Positions 7,215 to 64,000 of a DNA stretch of 64,000 nucleotides are shown here, one piece after another. Origin of the DNA: Escherichia coli. GTDB lineage: Bacteria > Pseudomonadota > Gammaproteobacteria > Enterobacterales > Enterobacteriaceae. The notes beneath the pieces were generated by a model that worked only from the letters and a program-made list of their open reading frames with translations, made no database searches and was not told where the DNA came from. The position numbers were made by a program, and so were the translations under genes. The stretch's first letter is position 1; each line of letters begins with the position of its first letter. Location of the stretch: assembly GCF_030013595.1 (NCBI RefSeq), contig NZ_CP122768.1. One strand, written 5' to 3'.

Positions 7215-8633
7215 ATGCAGGAAAATATATCAGTAACCGATTTATACAGCACCGGGAATGCCGCACAGGCAATGCTGGAGAAACTGCTGCAAATTTATGA
7301 TGTTAAAACGCTGGTGGCGCAGCTTAATGGTGTGGGTGAGAATCACTGGAGCGCGGCAATTTTAAAACGTGCGCTGGCGAATGACTCGGCATGGCATCGT
7401 TTAAGTGAGAAAGAGTTCGCCCATCTGCAAACGTTGTTACCCAAACCACCGGCACATCATCCGCATTATGCGTTTCGCTTTATCGATCTATTTGCCGGAA
7501 TTGGCGGCATCCGTCGCGGTTTTGAATCGATTGGCGGACAGTGCGTGTTTACCAGCGAATGGAACAAACATGCGGTACGCACTTATAAAGCCAATCATTA
7601 TTGCGACCCGGCGACGCATCATTTTAATGAAGATATCCGCGACATCACCCTCAGCCATAAAGACGGCGTGAGTGATGAGGCGGCGGCGGAACATATTCGT
7701 CAACACATTCCTGAACACGATGTATTACTGGCGGGTTTTCCTTGTCAGCCATTTTCGCTGGCTGGCGTATCGAAAAAGAACTCGCTCGGGCGGGCGCATG
7801 GTTTTGCCTGCGATACCCAGGGCACGCTGTTCTTTGATGTGGTGCGCATTATCGACGCGCGTCGTCCGGCGATGTTTGTGCTCGAAAACGTCAAAAACCT
7901 GAAAAGTCACGATAAAGGAAAAACGTTCCGCATCATCATGCAGACGCTGGAGGAACTGGGCTATGACGTGGCTGATGCAGAAGATAACGGGCCGGACGAT
8001 CCGAAAATCATCGATGGTAAACATTTCCTGCCGCAGCACCGTGAACGCATCGTGCTGGTGGGGTTTCGTCGCGATCTGAATCTGAAAGCCGATTTTACCC
8101 TGCGTGATATCAGCGAATGTTTCCCTGCGCAGCGAGTGACGCTGGCCCAGCTGCTGGACCCGATGGTCGAGGCGAAATATATCCTGACGCCGGTGTTGTG
8201 GAAGTACCTCTATCGTTATGCGAAAAAACATCAGGCACGCGGTAACGGCTTCGGTTATGGAATGGTTTATCCGAACAATCCGCAAAGCGTCACGCGTACG
8301 CTGTCTGCGCGTTATTACAAAGATGGCGCGGAAATTTTAATCGATCGCGGTTGGGATATGGCCACGGGTGAGAAAGACTTTGACGATCCGCTGAATCATC
8401 AACATCGTCCACGTCGGTTAACGCCTCGGGAATGCGCGCGCTTAATGGGTTTTGAAGCGCCGGGAGAAGCGAAATTCCGCATTCCGGTTTCGGACACTCA
8501 GGCCTATCGCCAGTTCGGTAACTCGGTGGTCGTACCGGTCTTTGCCGCGGTGGCAAAACTGCTTGAGCCAAAAATCAAACAGGCGGTGGCGTTGCGTCAG
8601 CAAGAGGCACAACATGGCCGACGTTCACGATAA
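7215..8633 (+). CDS. dcm: DNA-cytosine C5 methyltransferase (CCWGG)
   Basis: 472-aa ORF; FxGxG SAM motif ([12 protein letters not shown]); catalytic PCQ ([11 protein letters not shown]). Confidence 0.95.
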
Positions 8634-46782: not shown

Positions 46783-47799
46783 TCATTTTCTCTGGCCACC
46801 AACTACGGGCACTACTTTAACTTTTCGGTCATATGCTGCTGTCTGTCGTGGGTTCTTATGCCCGGAAATTGCTTGCTTCTCTTCCAGGCTGCCTTCCAGA
46901 TCAGAGATACCTTTTGCTTTCAGATCATGAAATGTGAAGTCTATTTGCAGATGAGGATATTTTTCCTGTGCTGCCGCTTTGACATCACGCCAACGAGAGT
47001 TAAAACCATCACGGGTGTACTTGCCTCCGGTAGTTTGATGAATCACAAACAGGCTACTGATTCCCGGTTTTAATGGCAGAGAACGAGCCAGAGCTATCGC
47101 TTTCTGCAGACGAGGCGACCAGGCTTTGATTTGCTTAACGCCGGTTTTTCCCTGACGAATGTAGATCCCGGAATCGAACAGCTGGTCTTTCTGTAATGAA
47201 AGTACATCACTCTGTCTGGCCACACATAAGTAGGCAATCTCCATTGCCACGCGAACAACATCAGGAGACACTTCATAAACGGCCTGATATTCTTCATCCG
47301 TAATATAACGTTCGCGTGCTGTCTCTTTAAACTGCTTAACTCCCTGACAAGGATTCCTCTGGACATAACCTCGTTCATAACCCCAACGGAATACCCTGGA
47401 CATAAAGCTTTTTTCCCTATTTGCCTGAGTTCGGCTTGATAAACCGCGTTGATCCATATAGCGCCGAATATGTTCAGGTTTGATTTTATCCGGGTCGATC
47501 TTCCCGAAGACAGGCAGAACTTTTCCGGAATATTTTGTGTAGTCTTTCCTGGTTTCGACTGCCAAATCCATAAAATCAGGGGAGGTCATGAATTGTTCCG
47601 CGAGCGCCTGAAAAGTATTTCTTTCTTTTTCGTCACCGACCGCTTTTTCATATGCCAGCCATACGGCTGATCGTGGCGCATCCAATGCGCACAGGCGTAT
47701 CGCTTTGTTATCTTTATTCCTGAATTCGTAGGCCGCTTTGCCCTGGTAAACACGAGGCGGCATCCAGTTATCTGCTGGGTTCTTTCTCTTTCCGGCCAT
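46783..47799 (-). CDS. int: phage tyrosine integrase
   Basis: ORF 46783..47826; likely start ATG 47799 with GGAG 9 nt upstream; C-terminal catalytic region. Confidence 0.8.
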   Translation of the reverse strand: MAGKRKNPADNWMPPRVYQGKAAYEFRNKDNKAIRLCALDAPRSAVWLAYEKAVGDEKERNTFQALAEQFMTSPDFMDLAVETRKDYTKYSGKVLPVFGKIDPDKIKPEHIRRYMDQRGLSSRTQANREKSFMSRVFRWGYERGYVQRNPCQGVKQFKETARERYITDEEYQAVYEVSPDVVRVAMEIAYLCVARQSDVLSLQKDQLFDSGIYIRQGKTGVKQIKAWSPRLQKAIALARSLPLKPGISSLFVIHQTTGGKYTRDGFNSRWRDVKAAAQEKYPHLQIDFTFHDLKAKGISDLEGSLEEKQAISGHKNPRQTAAYDRKVKVVPVVGGQRK

Positions 47800-48031
47800 T
47801 AAATATTGCTCCAAAATCAGGTTCATCTTCTTTTCGCGTCGTCACCTCCTGTAAATTGCGAAATTTTATTGGGTTCAAGAAATGGCCCCAGGTTGTTTTT
47901 GGGTGCCCGTCAGCCCTTTCCATGAAGAAAATTCCAGCCCGGCGAAGAGCCTCACATTGCTTTGATTTAAGTGGGCTTCCCGTCAGCTCGACCATTTCTT
48001 CTCTGGTGATTATGTCGTGATCGCTTTTCAT
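47768..48031 (-). CDS. small phage protein, DUF4224-like (excisionase-associated)
   Basis: 87-aa ORF overlapping int start, typical xis-like position. Confidence 0.5.
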   Translation of the reverse strand: MKSDHDIITREEMVELTGSPLKSKQCEALRRAGIFFMERADGHPKTTWGHFLNPIKFRNLQEVTTRKEDEPDFGAIFNGRKEKEPSR

Positions 48032-48240: not shown

Positions 48241-48423
48241 TTATTTCTGATTAGGCGTAATCAGTTCTGGTGGGGGGAATGCCGATTTCTCCCGCGTGAC
48301 CTTAATGTTTTCTGGCAGGTGTAGCCCAAGTTCGCAGCGACTCCGTGCTTCAATAATGCCATTGGTACCATCGGCAAGTACCAGGTGAACCGCGTCACCA
48401 CGCTTTAATGTGAGTTTAAGCAT
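48241..48423 (-). CDS. hypothetical phage protein
   Basis: 60-aa ORF abutting next gene. Confidence 0.4.
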   Translation of the reverse strand: MLKLTLKRGDAVHLVLADGTNGIIEARSRCELGLHLPENIKVTREKSAFPPPELITPNQK

Positions 48424-48992
48424 TAGCGTACCCTCAGCGAACGTTCGCCGCGTTCCAGATGTGCGCCTGGTACCGGGTTTAATAACTCGGCTGGTGGTGT
48501 TTCTCCACGCGCCAGTATTTCGGCGGCAACCGCCTCCGCAGATTCAATCACTTCTTTAATGGCTCGCTTGTTTGGTGTAATAACCGTTTCTACATCAACA
48601 AGTGACACGCCTTCATACTCATCCGGGATCTTATCTTTGCTATCGATAATTACCCGGATAGCCCCCTGTGCATCAGTAAATGTGTTTTTTGCGGTTTTTA
48701 GTTTATCCAGGCCAGCAGCTTGCAGGCAGGCGAGCATATGCTTCCGAATTGCTTTTTCCTTGCCTTCAAAGGACGTCTTACGGGTAGCCAGGCGAGACAT
48801 TTCTTCAGCGCAGGTACTGGCATTGCCCTGTAAATTACGGCAGATGACCATCATGGCGTCCAGTTTGTCTCCCAGTTCTCCTTCCATACCTTCAAGCGTG
48901 TCGGCGATCATCTCTGGCGTCAGTTCGTCGGAGGTTTCTAACAGGTCAATCAGACTGGCATATTCTTTTGCAATAGCGATAGCAGTGCTCAT
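48423..48992 (-). CDS. Siphovirus Gp157-like phage protein
   Basis: 189-aa acidic ORF; family assignment from recall, tentative. Confidence 0.5.
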   Translation of the reverse strand: MSTAIAIAKEYASLIDLLETSDELTPEMIADTLEGMEGELGDKLDAMMVICRNLQGNASTCAEEMSRLATRKTSFEGKEKAIRKHMLACLQAAGLDKLKTAKNTFTDAQGAIRVIIDSKDKIPDEYEGVSLVDVETVITPNKRAIKEVIESAEAVAAEILARGETPPAELLNPVPGAHLERGERSLRVR

Positions 48993-51214
48993 GCTGTTTG
49001 CTCCTGTGCTGCGGTGAGGGCGGTGAGGCGTTCGGTTTTGATTTCATTCAAACGGCGCAGGCGCGAACCAAGATAAGTTGAATACTCCTTATCACCTTTG
49101 GATTCTGCGGCCTTGCGGTGAACTTCTACTTCCCGCGCAATAAGGCCATAGACTTTATTAACTTCATTGGGGGTTACGGCTGCAGCCAGTGTTTTGGCAA
49201 CACCTGAGAGTCGTTCATCCAGTTCTTCACGCAGTCGGGTAGCATCCTCTGCTTTCTCGCTTGCCTTCTTAATACTGTATTCTGTATTCAGCTCGGCGGT
49301 GTAGGCACTATCGTTATGCATATCCATATAAACATCTGCCGCAAATCCCAGATGAGATAGTGCTTTGACGGTGGCATCAGTAAGAGACTTTTTGGAGGCC
49401 TCTTTTTCCATTACCAGTGCCCCTTTGTTATTTTTTGATATGTAATCCGTGTGGCCATATGACGGAATAAATCCTTTCACTCCGTTCCAGATGTACCAGA
49501 GATCTATCCGGATGGTGTGTACTGACAGGCAGAACAGGGAACCGTCAGCATCCCTGACAGGTTTTTGTCCAATAATTTTCCCTGTCTGATCCTGTATAGG
49601 TTCAAGTAATGGCACACCGCGATCCACTCGCTCCTCCTTGATTTCAACTCCCCAACCAATGCCTTCCATTCCCAGCACTTCAGTCGCACGCATCAAAATA
49701 TATTGTGCGCGTATGGAGTGCAGTCCTGCACCGTAATCATTATGTGTGACATACGCAGGATCGGTCCGCTGAACGCGATTCCAGATAGCCAAATTTGCTT
49801 TGCTCTGGTCATCATTCATTGCTGACAGATAATGCTCCATGCGAATTGATGCAGTTTTTTCCTCGGCATGGGGCGGCTCAACCAGCGCGTCAACGTTCTG
49901 CACCAGGTCTTTTACCTGCTCGCTAAGTTTTTCTTGTGGAGGAGTCTCTTCTGCCGGGGTAATAGCTGCAGGTTCCCTCTGTGATACGGCGTTATTTTCA
50001 GGTACGTCATACACATGGCGAGGCGTGACAAACTGCTCACGCAACTGCTGCAAACTACGTTCTCCAGCATTTGCTGCTTCGCTTTTTTCGCCCTGATTTG
50101 AGGGTGTTTCTGACATCATTCCATCAATTGAGAATCGCCCGCCGCCGTGGTTGGTGACTTTTACATCATCCTTTGGTGCTGTTTCCTTTGGCTTCTCTTC
50201 AACAGCATTTGCATCACGCTGCCCGTTAGCTTGCAGCCAGTTGTCGATGTGACTGCGCAGGGATTGCGGGAAGTGGTACGTGTCTTTTGCGGGGGCGCTC
50301 TGAATAACACCGAATACTGATGCGCGGTCATAGGCAAGGATCTGATCCGTTGTGCGCAAGGCCATTGACCAGCGTTTAAAATCCTCCCGATCCTGGCTGA
50401 TTATTTCGTCTGCCGCTTTCAGGACGCTGGGGGTGATTTTTTCCGGGCCAACGGGTAACAGGGCGCAGGCAATTTCACGATCCAGTGTGGCGTGAGTCTG
50501 TTGGTAAGGACGTGCGGATGCTGTTTCTGGTTTTACCTCCGGCAGCATTTCATCGCGTTTACCGGGATTCTCTACCCATTTTTTTATAAATTTGGAGATA
50601 GTCCAACTGGTCGGGTTTTGTTCCTGGGTATCGCAACTTGCCAAAATTGCATGTACCAGATTATTCAATCCAGCAATATGCATGTACTCGATGGGCTTAC
50701 ACGCCACCATGGCATCAAGAACGATGCGGTTAAACGCGTCAACCTCATCCTCACTGTCAGTATCACTGTTGTCGAGCATCTCCAGGTATTCACGCGTCTG
50801 CGCAAGCAATTCACTGTCGACTTCGTTGGCGTCGTGGCTGAACAGCAGGACGGCGGCGAAGCGTTCACGAGCCGGCAGTTTCATCAGGTCGTTAACCTGT
50901 GCGATATCTGCTGAACCGCTATCTGAATCAGCGGGGGTGTTAACTACCCATTTTTCGCCATCAAAACTGTGTTCTGTGGCAAACGTCTCATCAAACTCAC
51001 CGACGCCAGGGCGCGGTTGGCCCGGGGCATCTTCCCAGATTTTAGGTTTGAAATAGTTGTCGCCGTGGTCAGGGTAGGCTTCCCACAATTTGCCGATGAT
51101 GATGTTCTCGGCAACTTTTTTGTTAGGGGCGTCGATGGCGATGGCCAGCGCCGGGATCGCGCCGTTTTTGAGCGCGCCTTTTTTCGCTTCTAACAAGCCG
51201 TTAAAGATGGTCAT
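48989..51214 (-). CDS. large phage protein: acidic N-terminal region fused to Rad52-like single-strand annealing domain
   Basis: 741-aa ORF; C-terminal FCLSVHTIRIDL...SYGHTDY...KALSHLGFAADVY resembles Rad52/Sak core. Confidence 0.55.
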   Translation of the reverse strand: MTIFNGLLEAKKGALKNGAIPALAIAIDAPNKKVAENIIIGKLWEAYPDHGDNYFKPKIWEDAPGQPRPGVGEFDETFATEHSFDGEKWVVNTPADSDSGSADIAQVNDLMKLPARERFAAVLLFSHDANEVDSELLAQTREYLEMLDNSDTDSEDEVDAFNRIVLDAMVACKPIEYMHIAGLNNLVHAILASCDTQEQNPTSWTISKFIKKWVENPGKRDEMLPEVKPETASARPYQQTHATLDREIACALLPVGPEKITPSVLKAADEIISQDREDFKRWSMALRTTDQILAYDRASVFGVIQSAPAKDTYHFPQSLRSHIDNWLQANGQRDANAVEEKPKETAPKDDVKVTNHGGGRFSIDGMMSETPSNQGEKSEAANAGERSLQQLREQFVTPRHVYDVPENNAVSQREPAAITPAEETPPQEKLSEQVKDLVQNVDALVEPPHAEEKTASIRMEHYLSAMNDDQSKANLAIWNRVQRTDPAYVTHNDYGAGLHSIRAQYILMRATEVLGMEGIGWGVEIKEERVDRGVPLLEPIQDQTGKIIGQKPVRDADGSLFCLSVHTIRIDLWYIWNGVKGFIPSYGHTDYISKNNKGALVMEKEASKKSLTDATVKALSHLGFAADVYMDMHNDSAYTAELNTEYSIKKASEKAEDATRLREELDERLSGVAKTLAAAVTPNEVNKVYGLIAREVEVHRKAAESKGDKEYSTYLGSRLRRLNEIKTERLTALTAAQEQTA

Positions 51215-57949: not shown

Positions 57950-58207
57950 ATGCAGACTCAATTAAAGGTTAAAGGCGGTTATAGTCATTTTTTCTTCGCC
58001 AATATTGAAGTCTCACAAAGAGAGTCAAATGGCGGTTTGGTTGTCGTTAGGGATGTTAATATACCTATTACAACAACAACTCTCTCTCTGTTAGAGAATT
58101 ACGCTGTAGGGCAGGTGTTGACGTTAGAACAAAAGAATGGCGATTTTTTTGATGTGTATTACGTTGGAACTGATGGGAATAACTTTCAGTTTTCAACGCA
58201 CTGCTAA
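57950..58207 (+). CDS. hypothetical phage protein; its 3' end lies in left copy of a ~200-bp direct repeat
   Basis: 85-aa ORF with GGAG RBS. Confidence 0.45.
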   Translation: MQTQLKVKGGYSHFFFANIEVSQRESNGGLVVVRDVNIPITTTTLSLLENYAVGQVLTLEQKNGDFFDVYYVGTDGNNFQFSTHC

Positions 58208-58310
58208 TTTATCAAGGCCCTGTGAGCAGGGCCTTCGAAAGCCTACTAAAGTCTGTTTCATAGAGAGAGTTATTTGCGATTAAAAAGGTATTTGGTCACG
58301 ACCAGCACGA
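58114..58310. repeat. left copy of diverged ~200-bp direct repeat
   Basis: Aligns to 63183..63374 at roughly 85% identity with short indels. Confidence 0.7.
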
Positions 58311-58419
58311 TAGAGAATACATCTTTCAAAGTACCGCCCATATAAAACAGTTACATATGCACTTGATGACTAAGCTGGCACCAGGTTAACACCATGCGCC
58401 AGCTTGAAGGAGACTTCAG

Positions 58420-58593
58420 TTATTGGTTTCTGAGGAAAGCGATTCTTGAAAGGGTCATTTGCGTCTGGCAGTCGACCATTTTCTTGACTTCAGCATCTGT
58501 TCCTTTCTTGACTTCAGCATCTGTTCCCTGCATTGAAACTTTACCGCACATAGCATCCTTAGTTTTGATCCACTGGCGCTGAGAAGGCAGCAA
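58420..58593 (-). pseudogene. 3' fragment of lipoprotein gene split by IS629
   Basis: Joining across the IS with one copy of the ACT target duplication restores one frame to TAA at 58420..58422. Confidence 0.65.
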
Positions 58594-58649
58594 CTTGAAC
58601 CGCCCCGGAAATCCTGGAGACTAAACTCCCTGAGAAAGAGGTAAACAGG

Positions 58650-58976
58650 ATGACTAAAAATACTCGTTTTTCCCCCGAAGTCCGTCAGCGGGCGATTCGT
58701 ATGGTTCTGGAAAGTCAGGATGAATATGACTCACAGTGGGCGGCAATTTGTTCCATTGCCCCAAAGATTGGCTGTACGCCGGAGACTCTGCGTGTCTGGG
58801 TTCGCCAGCATGAGCGGGATACCGGGGGCGGTGATGGTGGGCTCACCAGCGCTGAACGTCAGCGTCTGAAAGAGCTGGAACGTGAAAATCGTGAACTGCG
58901 CCGCAGTAACGATATCCTTCGCCAGGCTTCCGCTTATTTTGCGAAGGCGGAGTTCGACCGCCTCTGGAAAAAATGA
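58650..58976 (+). CDS. IS3-family transposase OrfA
   Basis: 108-aa [25 protein letters not shown] recognised as IS629/IS1203 OrfA. Confidence 0.9.
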
Positions 58977-59863
58977 TGCCACTGCTGGATAAGCTGCGTG
59001 AGCAGTACGGGGTCGGACCGGTATGTAGCGAACTGCATATTGCCCCGTCAACGTATTACCATTGTCAGCAACAGCGACATCATCCGGATAAACGCAGTGC
59101 CCGTGCGCAGCACGATGACTGGCTGAAGAAAGAGATACAGCGCGTATACGATGAAAATCACCAGGTATACGGTGTGCGTAAAGTCTGGCGTCAGTTGTTA
59201 CGGGAAGGTATCAGAGTGGCCAGATGCACTGTGGCACGTCTCATGGCAGTTATGGGACTTGCCGGTGTTCTCCGGGGTAAAAAGGTCCGCACTACCGTCA
59301 GCCGGAAAGCCGTTGCCGCAGGCGACCGCGTAAACCGTCAGTTCGTGGCAGAACGACCTGACCAGCTGTGGGTGGCTGATTTTACTTACGTCAGCACATG
59401 GCAGGGCTTCGTCTATGTGGCGTTTATCATTGATGTGTTTGCCGGATACATCGTGGGGTGGCGGGTCTCATCGTCTATGGAAACGACATTCGTGCTGGAT
59501 GCGCTGGAGCAGGCGTTGTGGGCCCGTCGTCCGTCTGGCACCATCCATCACAGCGATAAAGGCTCTCAGTATGTGTCACTGGCCTATACGGAGCGACTAA
59601 AAGAAGCCGGATTACTGGCATCAACAGGGAGTACAGGCGACTCGTATGACAACGCGATGGCTGAGAGCATCAATGGTCTTTACAAAGCGGAGGTAATACA
59701 CCGTAAGAGCTGGAAAAAACGTGCAGAAGTGGAACTGGCCACACTAACGTGGGTGGACTGGTATAACAATCGACGATTGCTGGGAAGGCTGGGCCATACT
59801 CCTCCGGCAGAAGCAGAAAAAGCTTATTATGCTTCCATCGGAAACGATGATCTGGCAGCCTGA
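58973..59863 (+). CDS. IS3-family transposase OrfB (DDE integrase-like)
   Basis: 296-aa ORF overlapping orfA in -1 frame. Confidence 0.9.
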
Positions 59864-59905
59864 GTTCACAGATAAAACACTCTCCAGGAAACCCGGGGCG
59901 GTTCA

Positions 59906-60680
59906 ACTCTTTTTTCTTCGCCGGGGTTAACTTGCTCCAGACGGTATTCAAATCAGAGTCAGCATTTGCAAATGCCATTCGGGACTGATCAAGGCTTTCA
60001 GATTTTTGCGGCTGAAGTTGTGCCTGCCTCTCTTTTTGCTTCTCCGCCTCATACCTGGCCTGTTCCTGTGCCCTGAGTTGCACCTGTTGTTCCGCTTCAA
60101 TTTGACTCTGTTGGGCATCCTTAGCCTGCTGGATTTTCTGCTGCTCAACGATCGGGTTGATAATGGAAAGCGATGTCAGTAAAGCGGCGCCCACTGATAT
60201 CGGATTATCAGAAGAGGTTTTTACAAAAACGTTTTTCTGATCGTCGGTCGCCTGCACGGTGTAGGTGATACGCCTTGAAAAGGCGTTTGCGTTGTTCTCC
60301 AAAAACAGATTTTCCATTTGCTTATCGAGATTACGATTAAAATTCTTTCTGTAAGCATCTGAAAGCTGGACGTACTCGTTCGCAGGTAGAGTCATCGTCA
60401 CGGTCCCTTCACAAGTTTTCATTGTGCTGCCCGTGTCACTTGATGTTGTGGAGATTTCAGAGACGGCTAGTTTGATCTTGTCCAGTGTGCTTCGTTTGGT
60501 CTGATTAGTGACATCAGGGTATTTATCGACCTGTTCAGAGAGTCCTTCATAAGCAGATTTTTTTAATAAATCCATGAGAGCTGATTGGGTCATTTCCGAA
60601 GAACAACCGATCTCATCTTTTTTGTTATCACAGCCTGTAAGGGCAATGGCGAGTAAGAGTACTGAGTATTTTAATCTCAT
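59906..60680 (-). pseudogene. 5' fragment of lipoprotein gene split by IS629
   Basis: ORF 59670..60680 has lipobox LTGC; after codon 258 it reads into the IS629 right end. Confidence 0.7.
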
Positions 60681-61436
60681 GAATTCCCTTTAGAGTAAGG
60701 ATTGGTTTTTAAGACGCGGTCTGTAATCAGTTCCGAGAGCTACAGTAAACAACGCTGAGCACTGAACGCATCACAGGCAAGGTAAAAGGTGATATCGGCA
60801 AAGGCTGTGAAACCTTTAATTCAACAGATGGGAACGGTATGCACAGGATCCTGTAACGACGCTCCCAAAACTGGAAACCTGTAAGGCATGTTTTCGCTGC
60901 TGAACTTAATATACGAACCTGCACTATCATGAACATATTTTATATCGTTATACCCCGAGTGATTGTGCCCGGCAATGGATAGTGTCCTGGAGGAATTATT
61001 TCTAATGTAAAAGGAAGATATTTAATTTCGATGTGGGATTATTACCTGTCTATAAGAACAATGACTTTATCTGGCAGTAAGCAGACATCTATTAGCTTAC
61101 TGAAGGGGGGCTGTGATTTGACCATTAACGGCATGAGATATATTGTCTATTGGTGATTGTTCTGAGGCCGATATCACGTTAACGACCAAGTAAAATAACA
61201 TGAAAAATTATTTATTAATGATTGCCAGCATTAAATGTAGTGATACCTCATTAGCAGGGTGCTCCGCAATGACTGCGATGAACTAAAAAATCAGTCATAA
61301 CCATGAAAAAAACAAGTGTATCAGCGAAATTAAATCTGGTGAAAGCATTTAATTACTTGTTAATGACGCAATAAAAACATACTATGGAAATGTAACAGCT
61401 AATCTACAGTTCTTGTCAATAGGGGCGCACAAGAAA

Positions 61437-62027
61437 ATGTTAAATGAATTTAAGGAAAAGCTACTATCCGACGATATCCGCGATGTCTACCAACGATACC
61501 TTTTAGGACATGACATCTGGTATTTTCGGGAACAAAAAAAATCAATAACCTTTGCTAAAGATTATGATGAGTTTAAGCTATATATGTCTAAGAAGCTTGA
61601 AATTCATGTAAATAATATTGCAATTGTTGGAAGTGCTAAGATGGGATTCAGCTTGAGCCCTGATAAAAATTATCGAACATTTAACGATGAGTCAGATATA
61701 GACTTGGTTTTAGTATCCGACAGAATTTATAAATCTTCCTGGATGGCATTTATTGAATTACAATCAAAGAATTATTTGCCTGTATATGCTCCTGTAGCTA
61801 AAAATATTTTCAAAGGATTCGTGTCATTGAAGGAGTTAGATATTAGAGTCGATTTTTTTAATAAATGGTCCCGTAACGTTGAACCATTAAAAAAAGACAT
61901 TCAAACTATTTTTGGAATACCTAACGACATCAACTACAGAATTTATGACTCTTGGGAGTCCGTTGAACGCTATCACATAGCTGGGTTGAATAGTCTAAAA
62001 GATAAGTTACAAGGACAATTGATATGA
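61437..62027 (+). CDS. small Pol-beta-superfamily nucleotidyltransferase-like protein
   Basis: ORF 61413..62027 opens on TTG, first ATG 61437; IVGSAKMGFS...ESDIDLVLV fits the GS...DxD pattern; low GC; stop overlaps next start (ATGA). Confidence 0.65.
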   Translation: MLNEFKEKLLSDDIRDVYQRYLLGHDIWYFREQKKSITFAKDYDEFKLYMSKKLEIHVNNIAIVGSAKMGFSLSPDKNYRTFNDESDIDLVLVSDRIYKSSWMAFIELQSKNYLPVYAPVAKNIFKGFVSLKELDIRVDFFNKWSRNVEPLKKDIQTIFGIPNDINYRIYDSWESVERYHIAGLNSLKDKLQGQLI

Positions 62028-63082
62028 GAGCTATTGATCTAATTAAAGTTGAATCGAAAGACATTAAATGGTTGACGGATAATTTGAAATCAGGTGTTAT
62101 TACAGTTGATAATTCATATCAGAGAAAATATATCTGGCAGCAAAAAGACCAAGTGGCCTTAATTGAGACAATATTAATTGGCTACCCAATCCCTGAGATT
62201 TACCTTTGGGCAAATAATACTGATCCTGACACTGGAGATACTAAATATTCAATTGTAGATGGACAGCAAAGGCTAACCACAATCCAGCGATATTTAAATG
62301 ATGAGTTTAAGTTAAGCAAAGCAGCTATAGATGATAAAGAAGCCGACTATAGTGGGAAAATTTTTTCAGAATTGTCGGCAGATAACAAACGTGATTTTTG
62401 GCGATACCAATTCTCATCCAGATTTATTAATGAATCATTGAGATATGATGAGATTGCAAAGTTATTTTTACGTCTAAATAGAACAAATACTACGTTAAAT
62501 CCTCAAGAACTTCGTAATGCTGAATTTAATGGCGAGTTTTTAAGATTAGCCGAAGAAATTGCACAAAATGAATTTTGGGATAATTATAAGATATTTACTC
62601 AGTCAGATATCCGTCGGATGCAAGACATTCAATTCATCAGCACATTATTGATTTTCTTACGAATGGGTATTGAGCAGGATAATACACAAAAATCAATTAA
62701 TCGAGTGTATGATCAATACAATGAGAATTACCCTGAGGCGACTGAGGACAGAATTATCTTTAACGAAGTGTTAAGGATCATATCTCAAATTATCAACAAT
62801 AAACAAGTATTAGAATCAGTTGTAAAGAAAAAAGGCCATTTGTATTTTATATTTGTGCTGGCATACTATTATTTACAGCTTAGTAAATCTAAGCTTGTTG
62901 ATATGAATGTTATTAGTTCAAAGCTCGAGGATTTTTTTAATATTTATGAGTTAAATGAACAAGATAACCCCCATCCACTGGTTGAGGAATATAGATTCCT
63001 CAGCCAAGAGGGTTCAAAGAAGAGTCATAACAGACAGCGTAGATTTGATATTTTGAAAGAATTTTGCTCTTTACATGATTAA
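62024..63082 (+). CDS. DUF262 (ParB-like, GmrSD N-terminal type) protein; no recognisable nuclease domain
   Basis: 352-aa ORF with YQRKYIW and IVDGQQRLTT motifs; helical C-terminal half without HNH/DUF1524 motifs. Confidence 0.75.
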   Translation: MRAIDLIKVESKDIKWLTDNLKSGVITVDNSYQRKYIWQQKDQVALIETILIGYPIPEIYLWANNTDPDTGDTKYSIVDGQQRLTTIQRYLNDEFKLSKAAIDDKEADYSGKIFSELSADNKRDFWRYQFSSRFINESLRYDEIAKLFLRLNRTNTTLNPQELRNAEFNGEFLRLAEEIAQNEFWDNYKIFTQSDIRRMQDIQFISTLLIFLRMGIEQDNTQKSINRVYDQYNENYPEATEDRIIFNEVLRIISQIINNKQVLESVVKKKGHLYFIFVLAYYYLQLSKSKLVDMNVISSKLEDFFNIYELNEQDNPHPLVEEYRFLSQEGSKKSHNRQRRFDILKEFCSLHD

Positions 63083-63182
63083 ATGACGAAAGTGGGTTGT
63101 TTATAAGAATTGAATAAACAACCCATCATTTTAATGTACTCTGAATCCTCTCATTCTTAGTGAAATATTGTTTTTAGAACAC

Positions 63183-63374
63183 GTATTGACGTTAGAACAA
63201 AAAATAGATTTTTTTGTGATGTATTACGTTGGAGTTGATGGGATAATTATATGTTTTCAATACATTGTTAATTTATCAAGACCCTGCGACTAAGGTGTTC
63301 GAAAATCGACTAAAGTCTGTTTCATAGAGAGAGTTACTTGCGTTTAAAAAGGTATTTGGTCACGACCAACACGA
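63183..63374. repeat. right copy of diverged ~200-bp direct repeat (decayed copy of 3' end of 57950..58207 gene)
   Basis: Aligns to 58114..58310; reading frame broken by stops and indels. Confidence 0.7.
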
Positions 63375-63603
63375 GGCCGAATACCTCAGTTTAAGTACCG
63401 CTCATGTACAACAGTAACGTTTGCTGATAGTGTCGCATTATCTTGCAGAGGACGCAGGTTAAATAGAACAAGCATATGTACCTGGTTTTTGTAATATTGG
63501 GTATAACATATGCTTTATAGGAGCGCGCTCAATGACCAACCGAGAAAGAATCTCCTGACAGATACAGTTATTTTCACCCTCTCCATAACATAAGGGAGTT
63601 TTT

Positions 63604-64000
63604 ATGTCGGAAGTGAGTATCGTAGAAGACGCCCCACGCCCAGTAGTCGCCGAATTGGCAGATCTGTTACAAGCACAACCATTTCATCAGAATCAATATG
63701 ATAACTTATGTCGCTTTATGATTTATTTTTCCCTGGCTGAATCAAAGTTAACATCAATGGCTGCTGGCCTTGGTAGAACTGACGCACTGGCACAGGAACT
63801 GGTTGTGCATAACGGCATGGACAGTCAGACCATAGATGATTGCTATCGTTATTTTATACGACGCTATCGAGACAGCCCTGATAGCGATTACCGCTTCAAT
63901 AAACTGGCCCCGCCTGAGTATGTTAAGAATGCAATCAGAGAACGCTTTGTTACGCTACTTCAGATACAGTCTCCAACAATTGAAGATAAAATCAGCTTTG
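63604..64000 (+). CDS. hypothetical phage protein, 3' end beyond window
   Basis: Open frame from ATG 63604 (MSEVSIVEDAPRPVVAELADLL) with AGGGAG RBS, no stop before window end. Confidence 0.5.
   Translation, partial: MSEVSIVEDAPRPVVAELADLLQAQPFHQNQYDNLCRFMIYFSLAESKLTSMAAGLGRTDALAQELVVHNGMDSQTIDDCYRYFIRRYRDSPDSDYRFNKLAPPEYVKNAIRERFVTLLQIQSPTIEDKISF

Follow-up and report, generated by a model that had tools for sequence, protein, structure and literature searches.

Near the right-hand end of the 64,000-nucleotide (nt) stretch of Escherichia coli DNA analysed here (contig NZ_CP122768.1 of assembly GCF_030013595.1, hereafter the window) lies part of a prophage in which two diverged direct repeats bracket a group of accessory genes. 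From left to right the region holds an intact phage gene of 85 amino acids (aa), the left repeat, a gene for an LprI-family lipoprotein interrupted by the insertion sequence (IS) IS629, an AT-rich unit of two overlapping genes encoding a candidate nucleotidyltransferase (NTase) and a protein with a DUF262 domain, the right repeat, and the start of a 182-aa gene (Table 1). The prophage belongs to a lambdoid family of the Rac/YdaS-YdaT type. A preliminary description of this DNA had taken everything between the repeats for one cassette of 4.9 kb, inserted or exchanged by recombination into a phage gene. Comparison with 26 related loci, 20 of them of the E. coli/E. albertii type (loci are cited below by number), suggests instead that the repeats are old relics and that part of the DNA between them is a slot for defence genes.

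Table 1. Features of the slot, its edges and the left end of the prophage (window positions; A, t and m denote the three parts of the repeat unit, A' and m* their decayed counterparts)
Feature	Position	Strand	Basis or remark
Prophage integrase	46783-47826	-	left end of prophage
Mu Gam-like protein	48423-48992	-	left end of prophage
741-aa exonuclease	48989-51214	-	left end of prophage
A, intact 85-aa phage gene, left edge of variable region	57950..58207	+	open reading frame; 21 homologues
Left direct-repeat copy (3' end of A, hairpin spacer t, relic m)	58107..58365	.	alignment, blastn, repeat search
Strong terminator-like hairpin between convergent genes, intact in left copy	58212..58238	.	fold -17 kcal/mol, z -3.4, 0/200 shuffles as good
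m, left relic, last ~27 codons of 201-aa gene	58270..58365	-	translation QVHM*LFYMGGTLKDVFSIVLVVTKYLFNRK*; in-frame stop upstream
LprI gene terminator hairpin	58373..58404	-	fold -25.8 kcal/mol, z -5.0
LprI-family lipoprotein gene, 3' part, split by IS629	58420..58595	-	matches nt 1-176 of intact L001 gene; Pfam LprI in relatives
IS629 (IS3 family)	58596..59905	+	inverted repeats; 98.9% identical to IS629 in Stx phages
LprI gene, 5' part	59906..60680	-	matches nt 172-948 of L001 gene
LprI upstream region, constant left flank of cargo	60681..61116	.	92-97% identical in L002-L006, L009-L014, L026
Variable cargo, AT-rich two-gene unit	61117..63147	+	GC 0.328
196-aa protein, candidate MNT-like nucleotidyltransferase	61437..62027	+	reading frame listed from TTG at 61413
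352-aa DUF262/ParB-like (GmrSD_N) protein	62024..63082	+	Pfam GmrSD_N 1e-24, residues 22-168 only
Cargo operon terminator hairpin	63092..63126	+	fold -16 kcal/mol, z -3.8; followed by CAUCAUUUUA
A', 5'-truncated, frameshifted relic of 85-aa gene, right copy	63148..63271	+	indels and stop
t, right copy, decayed hairpin	63272..63333	.	83.9% identical to left copy; fold -4.5 kcal/mol, z 0.09
m*, right relic of 201-aa gene end, internal stop	63334..63429	-	same stop in empty-site relative L007
Right flank: spacer and start (from 63605) of 182-aa gene, which runs off the window	63430..64000	+	98.9-99.5% identical to L007, L015

The repeats themselves are real. Global alignment of 58114-58310 with 63183-63374 gives 166 identical columns out of 198 (83.8%, with 7 gap columns), compared with 51% on average and 55.7% at most in 300 shuffles, and blastn between the copies extends over 249 nt at 80.7% identity (E=3e-60). 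The direct repeats of about 85% identity that had first been proposed at these positions are thereby confirmed, and their similarity is not due to chance. Repeat search finds three collinear blocks with a spacing of 5064-5068 nt, and a longer span, 58107-58365 against 63175-63430, can be aligned at 79.7% over 261 columns; when set against relatives, the right copy starts at about 63148. The best-conserved portion is a core of ~70 nt (58244-58312 and 63308-63376). In the left copy, eight of the numbered loci (L001, L006, L008, L010-L014) are 100% identical to the window and three (L004, L005, L009) carry a single mismatch, within m. Of 5426 complete E. coli genomes, 449 contain the junction sequence, and the median number of copies in a genome is 2.

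What is repeated proves to be larger than the gene tail alone that the preliminary description had recognized. Part A comprises the last ~100 nt of the 85-aa gene, followed by a spacer, t, of 62 nt with a hairpin, and by m, which when read on the minus strand yields the end of a 201-aa gene. The end of the intact 201-aa gene in L002 translates as EDLTLQLYMGGTLTEVFGLVLVVTKYLFKRK*, and the right-copy relic as YQQTLLLYMSGT*TEVFGLVLVVTKYLFKRK*; because the translations of m match this gene end, the repeat unit is a duplicated convergent-gene junction, made up of the 3' end of the 85-aa gene on the plus strand, a terminator hairpin and the 3' end of the 201-aa gene on the minus strand. As had been suggested, the 3' part of the 85-aa gene survives in the right copy as a decayed duplicate (...VLTLEQK-DFF-VYYVG-DG..., after which the frame shifts). 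This copy is dead in all three of its parts: A' is truncated and frameshifted, the hairpin (z 0.09 versus -3.4 on the left) is no more stable than shuffled sequence, and m* is interrupted by a stop. The relevant hairpins were missed by a generic terminator scan, because no strict T-run directly follows the stem, and were confirmed by folding.

Both parent genes are found intact in related prophages. The 85-aa gene has homologues in E. coli, E. albertii, Klebsiella and Raoultella, almost all of exactly 85 aa, which always sit between the replication genes and the DUF1367/Q region; in Klebsiella and Raoultella the genes downstream are unrelated. The 201-aa gene is intact in L002, L003, L009-14 and L023-24, and adjoins an ImmA/IrrE (Peptidase_M78) gene in related prophages. 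Relic m abuts LprI in L002 and L003 too, with a 1-nt deletion in the L003 copy, and a relic homologous to A' lies before the 201-aa gene or R182 in L002, L005, L023, L024 and L026. An ancestral arrangement, with the 85-aa gene facing an intact 201-aa gene and nothing between them, is absent from the 26 related loci.

Two further observations concern the fine structure of the unit. A patch of ~30 nt in t (58244-58275 versus 63308-63339) is nearly identical between the window copies, while its flanks differ by ~20%, and the empty-site relatives (L007 9295-9330) carry a third allele of this patch, which resembles that of L002; the cause may be gene conversion from one in-cis copy to the other, or a shuffling of alleles. 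In four lineages with differing cargo (L002 at 7925-8025, L005, L023, L026) a conserved segment of ~110 nt with a hairpin (CAGTCCGCT...AGCGGACTG) lies 5' of A' and may represent either more of the 5' part of A', likewise decayed, or a terminator that these lineages share; the window has the cargo's own terminator in its place.

The prophage family, recognized by a 74-aa gene, the replication genes and the DUF1367/YbcO/Q module, is carried by 452 of the 5426 complete E. coli genomes; most of them are of the ST131 type. Across the 20 E. coli/E. albertii-type loci the slot starts after the 74-aa gene, which is followed by the 85-aa gene or, in the ST131 type, by ORF6N; in loci with an intact right end it stops before the 77-aa (minus strand), 213-aa and DUF1367 genes. 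At least eight contents, the empty state included, occupy this position (Table 2), between flanks that are 96-100% identical among relatives. The locus L025 has the same left end and then an IS, which truncates it. That the cargo is exchanged, as had been proposed, is borne out by the related prophages, where the same slot carries other cargo or, in L007 and L015, is empty, the 182-aa gene starting 334 nt after the 85-aa gene.

Table 2. Arrangements of the slot in the window and related loci (cargo in brackets)
Type	Loci	Arrangement
I	L007, L015	A-t-m*-182aa; empty site, no LprI, no cargo
II	window, L001, L008	A-t-m-LprI-[196aa+DUF262]-A'-t-m*-182aa
III	L009-L014	A-t-m-LprI-[339aa]-t-201aa-ImmA
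IV	L002, ST131 type	ORF6N-m-LprI-[232aa]-A'-t-201aa-ImmA
V	L003	ORF6N-m-LprI-[65aa, GIY-YIG, 134aa]-t-201aa-ImmA
VI	L004, L006	A-t-m-LprI-[455aa], no second junction copy
VII	L005, L026	A-t-m-LprI-[186aa, HNH, GIY-YIG, ...]-A'
VIII	L023, L024	A-t-m-(LprI remnant)-[GIY-YIG, 251aa, DUF6650, 125aa]-A'-t-201aa-ImmA

Several of these cargoes have near full-length matches among the PADLOC profiles: the 339-aa protein to PD-T7-5 (1.8e-102), the 455-aa protein to PD-T7-3 (3.7e-165) and a 268-aa GIY-YIG protein to PD-T4-3 (5.7e-138). Two more cargo proteins match the PADLOC candidates PDC-S39 (3.9e-265) and PDC-S31, and the PD-T4-3, PDC-S39 and PDC-S31 matches belong to one five-gene cargo set. PD-T7-5, PD-T7-3 and PD-T4-3 are experimentally validated defence systems (Vassallo et al. 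2022, PMC9519451). As several cargoes are close homologues of validated systems, the slot is, judged by homology, a prophage defence hotspot. No isolated phage with the slot at ≥85% identity was found in INPHARED, where a search with the whole region matched IS629 only.

The same comparison delimits what is exchanged. LprI and ~400 bp upstream of it are constant in most relatives, whichever cargo comes next, and IS629 is an independent insertion, so that the 4.9 kb do not form one cassette and only 61117-63147 is variable. This segment is present, among relatives of the prophage family, only in L001 and L008. The notion that cargo was inserted into a phage gene also fails, as the left 85-aa gene of the window is intact and 100% identical to that of the empty-site relatives. 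The cargo is compositionally foreign, its GC of 0.328 comparing with 0.514 for the replication genes (32.8% versus 51% for the backbone). Its terminator hairpin has a U-run. At the left edge of the cargo lies a promoter-like site (61118-61146), no more than a match to the consensus (9/12), and such matches are rarer in this region than in shuffled sequence.

Within the pair, the DUF262 assignment made in the preliminary description stands on the GmrSD_N match, and the NTase assignment is weakly supported. In the 196-aa protein, comparison of 30 homologues down to 32% identity shows G65, D87 and D89 to be invariant and S66 nearly so (≥90%), in agreement with the motif hG[GS]...[DE]x[DE]; the protein has no PADLOC match, and no HEPN or PD-T4-2_B match. 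The 352-aa protein matches the PADLOC profiles NsnA (4.3e-41, profile positions 48-379 of 385) and PD-T4-2_A (2.5e-19) and carries VDGQQR, described as the nucleoside triphosphate (NTP)-binding motif of DUF262 proteins (PMC10952713); no DUF1524 nuclease domain was found in it by Pfam search. The two genes are also adjacent in Yersinia, Enterobacter, Teredinibacter and Ferruginibacter (loci L027-L034), and the combination of an MNT-like protein with a DUF262 protein of ~350 aa is therefore kept from Enterobacteriaceae to Bacteroidota. In Yersinia the pair is placed between the P2 gpA and portal genes, which is the P2 defence hotspot; in Ferruginibacter a TIR gene lies ~3 kb downstream, and relatives have just the two genes. 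By analogy with such settings, the pair is most likely an anti-phage system.

The pair shares the GmrSD_N/ParB-like domain and the VDGQQR motif with the DUF262 defence proteins of Menshen (NsnA), PD-T4-2 and GmrSD/BrxU/SspE (PMC12065111, PMC10952713), and differs from them in its partner, an upstream MNT-like NTase-fold candidate of ~196 aa. An NsnA-like protein is present, but the pair is not Menshen (NsnABC), because both the transducer NsnB and the inPIN-nuclease effector NsnC are absent. PD-T4-2 consists of a DUF262 protein and a HEPN-domain partner (PMC10952713), and despite the PD-T4-2_A match the pair is not PD-T4-2, because it has no HEPN partner. Nor is it a type IV restriction system of the GmrSD/BrxU kind, because it possesses only GmrSD_N and lacks the DUF1524 His-Me nuclease. 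No NTase+DUF262 system was found described in the literature searched, and the pair may be regarded as a candidate new two-gene defence system with a distinct DUF262 arrangement.

These data are probably best explained if the repeats are old, diverged copies of a gene junction that frame a defence-gene slot, refilled by recombination between related phages and prophages. An old duplication, or the joining of the junction versions of two phage lineages, would have left the relic copies, which would then have come to bound an accessory slot, with LprI at its left, that has the replication module on one side and the DUF1367/YbcO/Q module on the other. The segment to the right of LprI would act as the hotspot proper, its content swapped through homology arms formed by LprI and its upstream region on the left and by the A'-t-m relic on the right. 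For the window itself, a backbone like that of L007 (A-t-m*-182aa) may have received the block m-LprI-cargo-A'-t from a relative by homologous recombination, with the right crossover falling inside the ~85-nt tail of the 201-aa gene.

The empty-site loci bear most directly on this proposal. Their junction is identical to the left copy of the window up to about 58244 and matches the right copy from about 63343, m* being identical including its stop and the spacer and 182-aa gene 98.9-99.5% identical; in both L007 and L015 the equivalent of the right flank directly follows A-t-m*. The 5' breakpoint of A', near nt 113-133 of the gene, is common to lineages with unrelated cargoes. Because of this shared breakpoint, and because divergence is ~20% between the window copies, against 0-4% for the backbone among relatives, the duplication is old or the copies come from different phage lineages, and it predates, and was not produced by, the arrival of the NTase-DUF262 cargo. 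Both homologous recombination as the mechanism and the direction of the events are what we infer from these alignments.

Several points weigh against the proposal. Relative to other loci, the cargo begins at 61076, 61086, 61088, 61109 or 61116 and ends at 63144-63149, 63265 or 63303; with boundaries staggered in this way, exchanges were not all made via the same arms, and cargo must at first have come in by illegitimate events. No sampled locus has the identical A'-t segment expected of a donor, the closest being 90-93% identical over 114-157 nt. A simple crossover between the two copies in the window does not yield the empty site, whose ~30-nt patch in t departs from both at ~10 positions; neither arrangement can therefore have arisen directly from the other. 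The defence role of the window's cargo is assigned by association only, through the DUF262 domain, the presence in the P2 hotspot and the TIR neighbour in Ferruginibacter. Copies of ~80% identity are a poor substrate for RecA, and no single-strand annealing recombinase (Rad52-like or RecT) was recognized in the early region of the prophage among open reading frames of ≥150 aa; its left end encodes an integrase, a Mu Gam-like protein and an exonuclease.

Other explanations fare less well. It is unlikely that the repeated segment is kept for a function at both places, such as that of a terminator, an insulator, a small RNA or a hydrophobic peptide of 23 codons (MGGTL...KYLFNRK, minus strand). 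The conservation of the ~70-nt core, the strength of the left hairpin and the fact that the left relic can be read as an ATG-started reading frame would fit such a role, but the core corresponds to the stretch that encodes the C-terminus in the intact 201-aa gene, no Shine-Dalgarno sequence precedes the ATG, the right copy has neither a hairpin better than shuffled sequence nor a relic free of in-frame stops, and the copy beside LprI in L003 has suffered a 1-nt deletion.

That the arrangement is the product of a recent event in situ, in which an LprI-NTase-DUF262 block arrived in or next to the 85-aa gene and created a duplication whose right copy has decayed since, appears quite improbable. 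Foreign AT-rich DNA bracketed by direct repeats and the empty sites of L007 and L015 are what such an event would leave behind. However, copies ~20% diverged are difficult to reconcile with a backbone 96-100% identical among relatives, and unrelated cargoes in L002, L005, L023 and L026 are framed by this A'-t-(201aa or m*) relic, its 5' breakpoint unchanged. LprI with its adjacent m relic is present in nearly all relatives regardless of cargo, and m* of the right copy is the allele of the empty-site lineage, stop codon included.

A site-specific mobile cassette of the integron, island or satellite kind, moving as a unit between att-like repeats, would likewise account for direct repeats around a block missing from some relatives, but is very improbable. 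Between the repeats there is no integrase or recombinase, the only transposase reading frames being those of IS629 with its own 3-bp duplication, and the prophage integrase is 10 kb away. The boundaries of variation are staggered by tens to >100 nt, those on the left lying 2.7 kb inside the repeat-bracketed block, and the repeats are gene relics of decaying sequence. Because of the staggered boundaries, the lack of a recombinase in the slot and the decay of the repeats, no site-specific cassette mechanism is supported. As a target-site duplication of a transposon, the repeats were likewise rejected: they are ~260 bp long and ~80% identical, no transposon abuts them, and only IS629 has a true duplication, ACT. 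Chance likeness between two AT-rich stretches (35-40% GC) can be discarded in view of the blastn E-value, the shuffles and the collinear homologues in 449 genomes.

The old junction copies and the slot that they appear to frame can be set beside several known systems. In the P2 and P4 hotspots (Rousset et al. 2022, PMC9122126; Vassallo et al. 2022, PMC9519451), as here, cargo has a fixed position between conserved phage genes, turns over rapidly among close relatives and includes validated defence systems, and the window's own pair occupies the P2 gpA-portal hotspot in Yersinia. For those hotspots, homologous exchange in the conserved flanks has been proposed (PMC9122126). The present slot differs in that it belongs to a lambdoid family (YdaS/YdaT, DnaB-type replication) and lies between the replication and nin/Q modules, in that its right anchor consists of gene relics duplicated from the left edge rather than of a functional gene, and in that a constant LprI lipoprotein gene shares the slot. 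In the literature searched, no description of this slot as a hotspot was found.

The cargo also resembles the morons of lambdoid phages, a concept due to Juhala and Hendrix, as a unit between genes that are adjacent in relatives, with deviant composition, its own terminator and a promoter-like site, the last a consensus match only. Unlike this one, classical morons do not as a rule lie between duplicated remnants of adjoining genes. With mosaic exchange by relaxed recombination (De Paepe et al. 2014, PMC3945230) the slot has in common short diverged segments at module borders and exchange between temperate phage and resident prophage. Phage recombination tolerates a divergence of 12-17% (De Paepe et al. 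2014, PMC3945230); the in-cis copies, at ~20%, are at or beyond this range, and no Rad52-like recombinase was recognized here among the reading frames of ≥150 aa. Integrons and att-flanked cassettes similarly have repeats flanking exchangeable cargo, but there is here no recombinase, no fixed cut sites and no common boundary, and the repeats are decaying coding sequence.

The case is a clear example of a known phenomenon, the prophage defence hotspot with moron-type cargo, and not of a new type of mobile element. Its value lies in the sequence-level picture that it offers of a lambdoid prophage family keeping a swap-in slot for defence genes, in which the frame consists of dead copies of a neighbouring gene junction and at least three validated systems (PD-T7-5, PD-T7-3 and PD-T4-3) alternate inside. 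As validated systems alternate in the slot, it can be mined by position for new ones, and the unexplained cargoes provide candidate systems: the NTase-like and DUF262 pair, the 232-aa ST131 protein, the 251-aa/DUF6650 set and a 329-aa protein. The prophage family is carried by the pandemic ST131 lineage. A bolder proposal, somewhat doubtful as a whole, is that the slot is an uncatalogued, widespread defence hotspot of a lambdoid prophage family (~8% of complete E. coli genomes, ST131 included) with the relic repeats as standing homology arms, and that the NTase and DUF262 proteins form a new two-gene anti-phage system. In it the NTase would stand where PD-T4-2 has its HEPN partner; sensing of phage DNA would fall to the DUF262 NTPase, and an effector or regulatory role to the NTase.

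The constant part of the slot has a history of its own. As first described, IS629 splits the lipoprotein gene; it is flanked by a target duplication of 3 bp, ACT, and in L001, a near-identical prophage of strain HCP5S3_I2, the site is uninterrupted and the LprI gene intact. IS629 is thus an independent, late insertion unrelated to the cargo exchange. Inside the LprI gene a perfect 24-bp tandem duplication (58480-58527) encodes an in-frame repeat of 8 aa (GTDAEVKK x2), so that LprI has 315 aa in the window, L001 and L008 and 307 aa in other relatives.

Some minor observations concern the edges of the slot. The slot gathers IS elements in relatives: an IS3-family element lies inside the A' relic of L001 (7383-8611) and of L008, at the equivalent of about 63184 in the window; L008 has a DDE_Tnp_1 IS upstream of LprI (IS coordinates in L008, 10513-11721 and 14271-15499); and in L025 (7498-8666) an IS follows the left junction, where the prophage is truncated and chromosomal genes come next. 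The ST131-type relatives (L002, 3475-4757) carry a 73-aa reading frame and an ORF6N/anti-repressor gene in place of the left 85-aa gene, of which only the right-edge A' relic remains; exchange therefore extends to the left edge of the slot as well. To the left of the 85-aa gene, a 78-aa phage gene (57021-57257) matches the DNA polymerase III theta subunit family (phrog_1105, 1.9e-29), and theta-like genes lie beside the 85-aa gene in the Klebsiella relatives as well.

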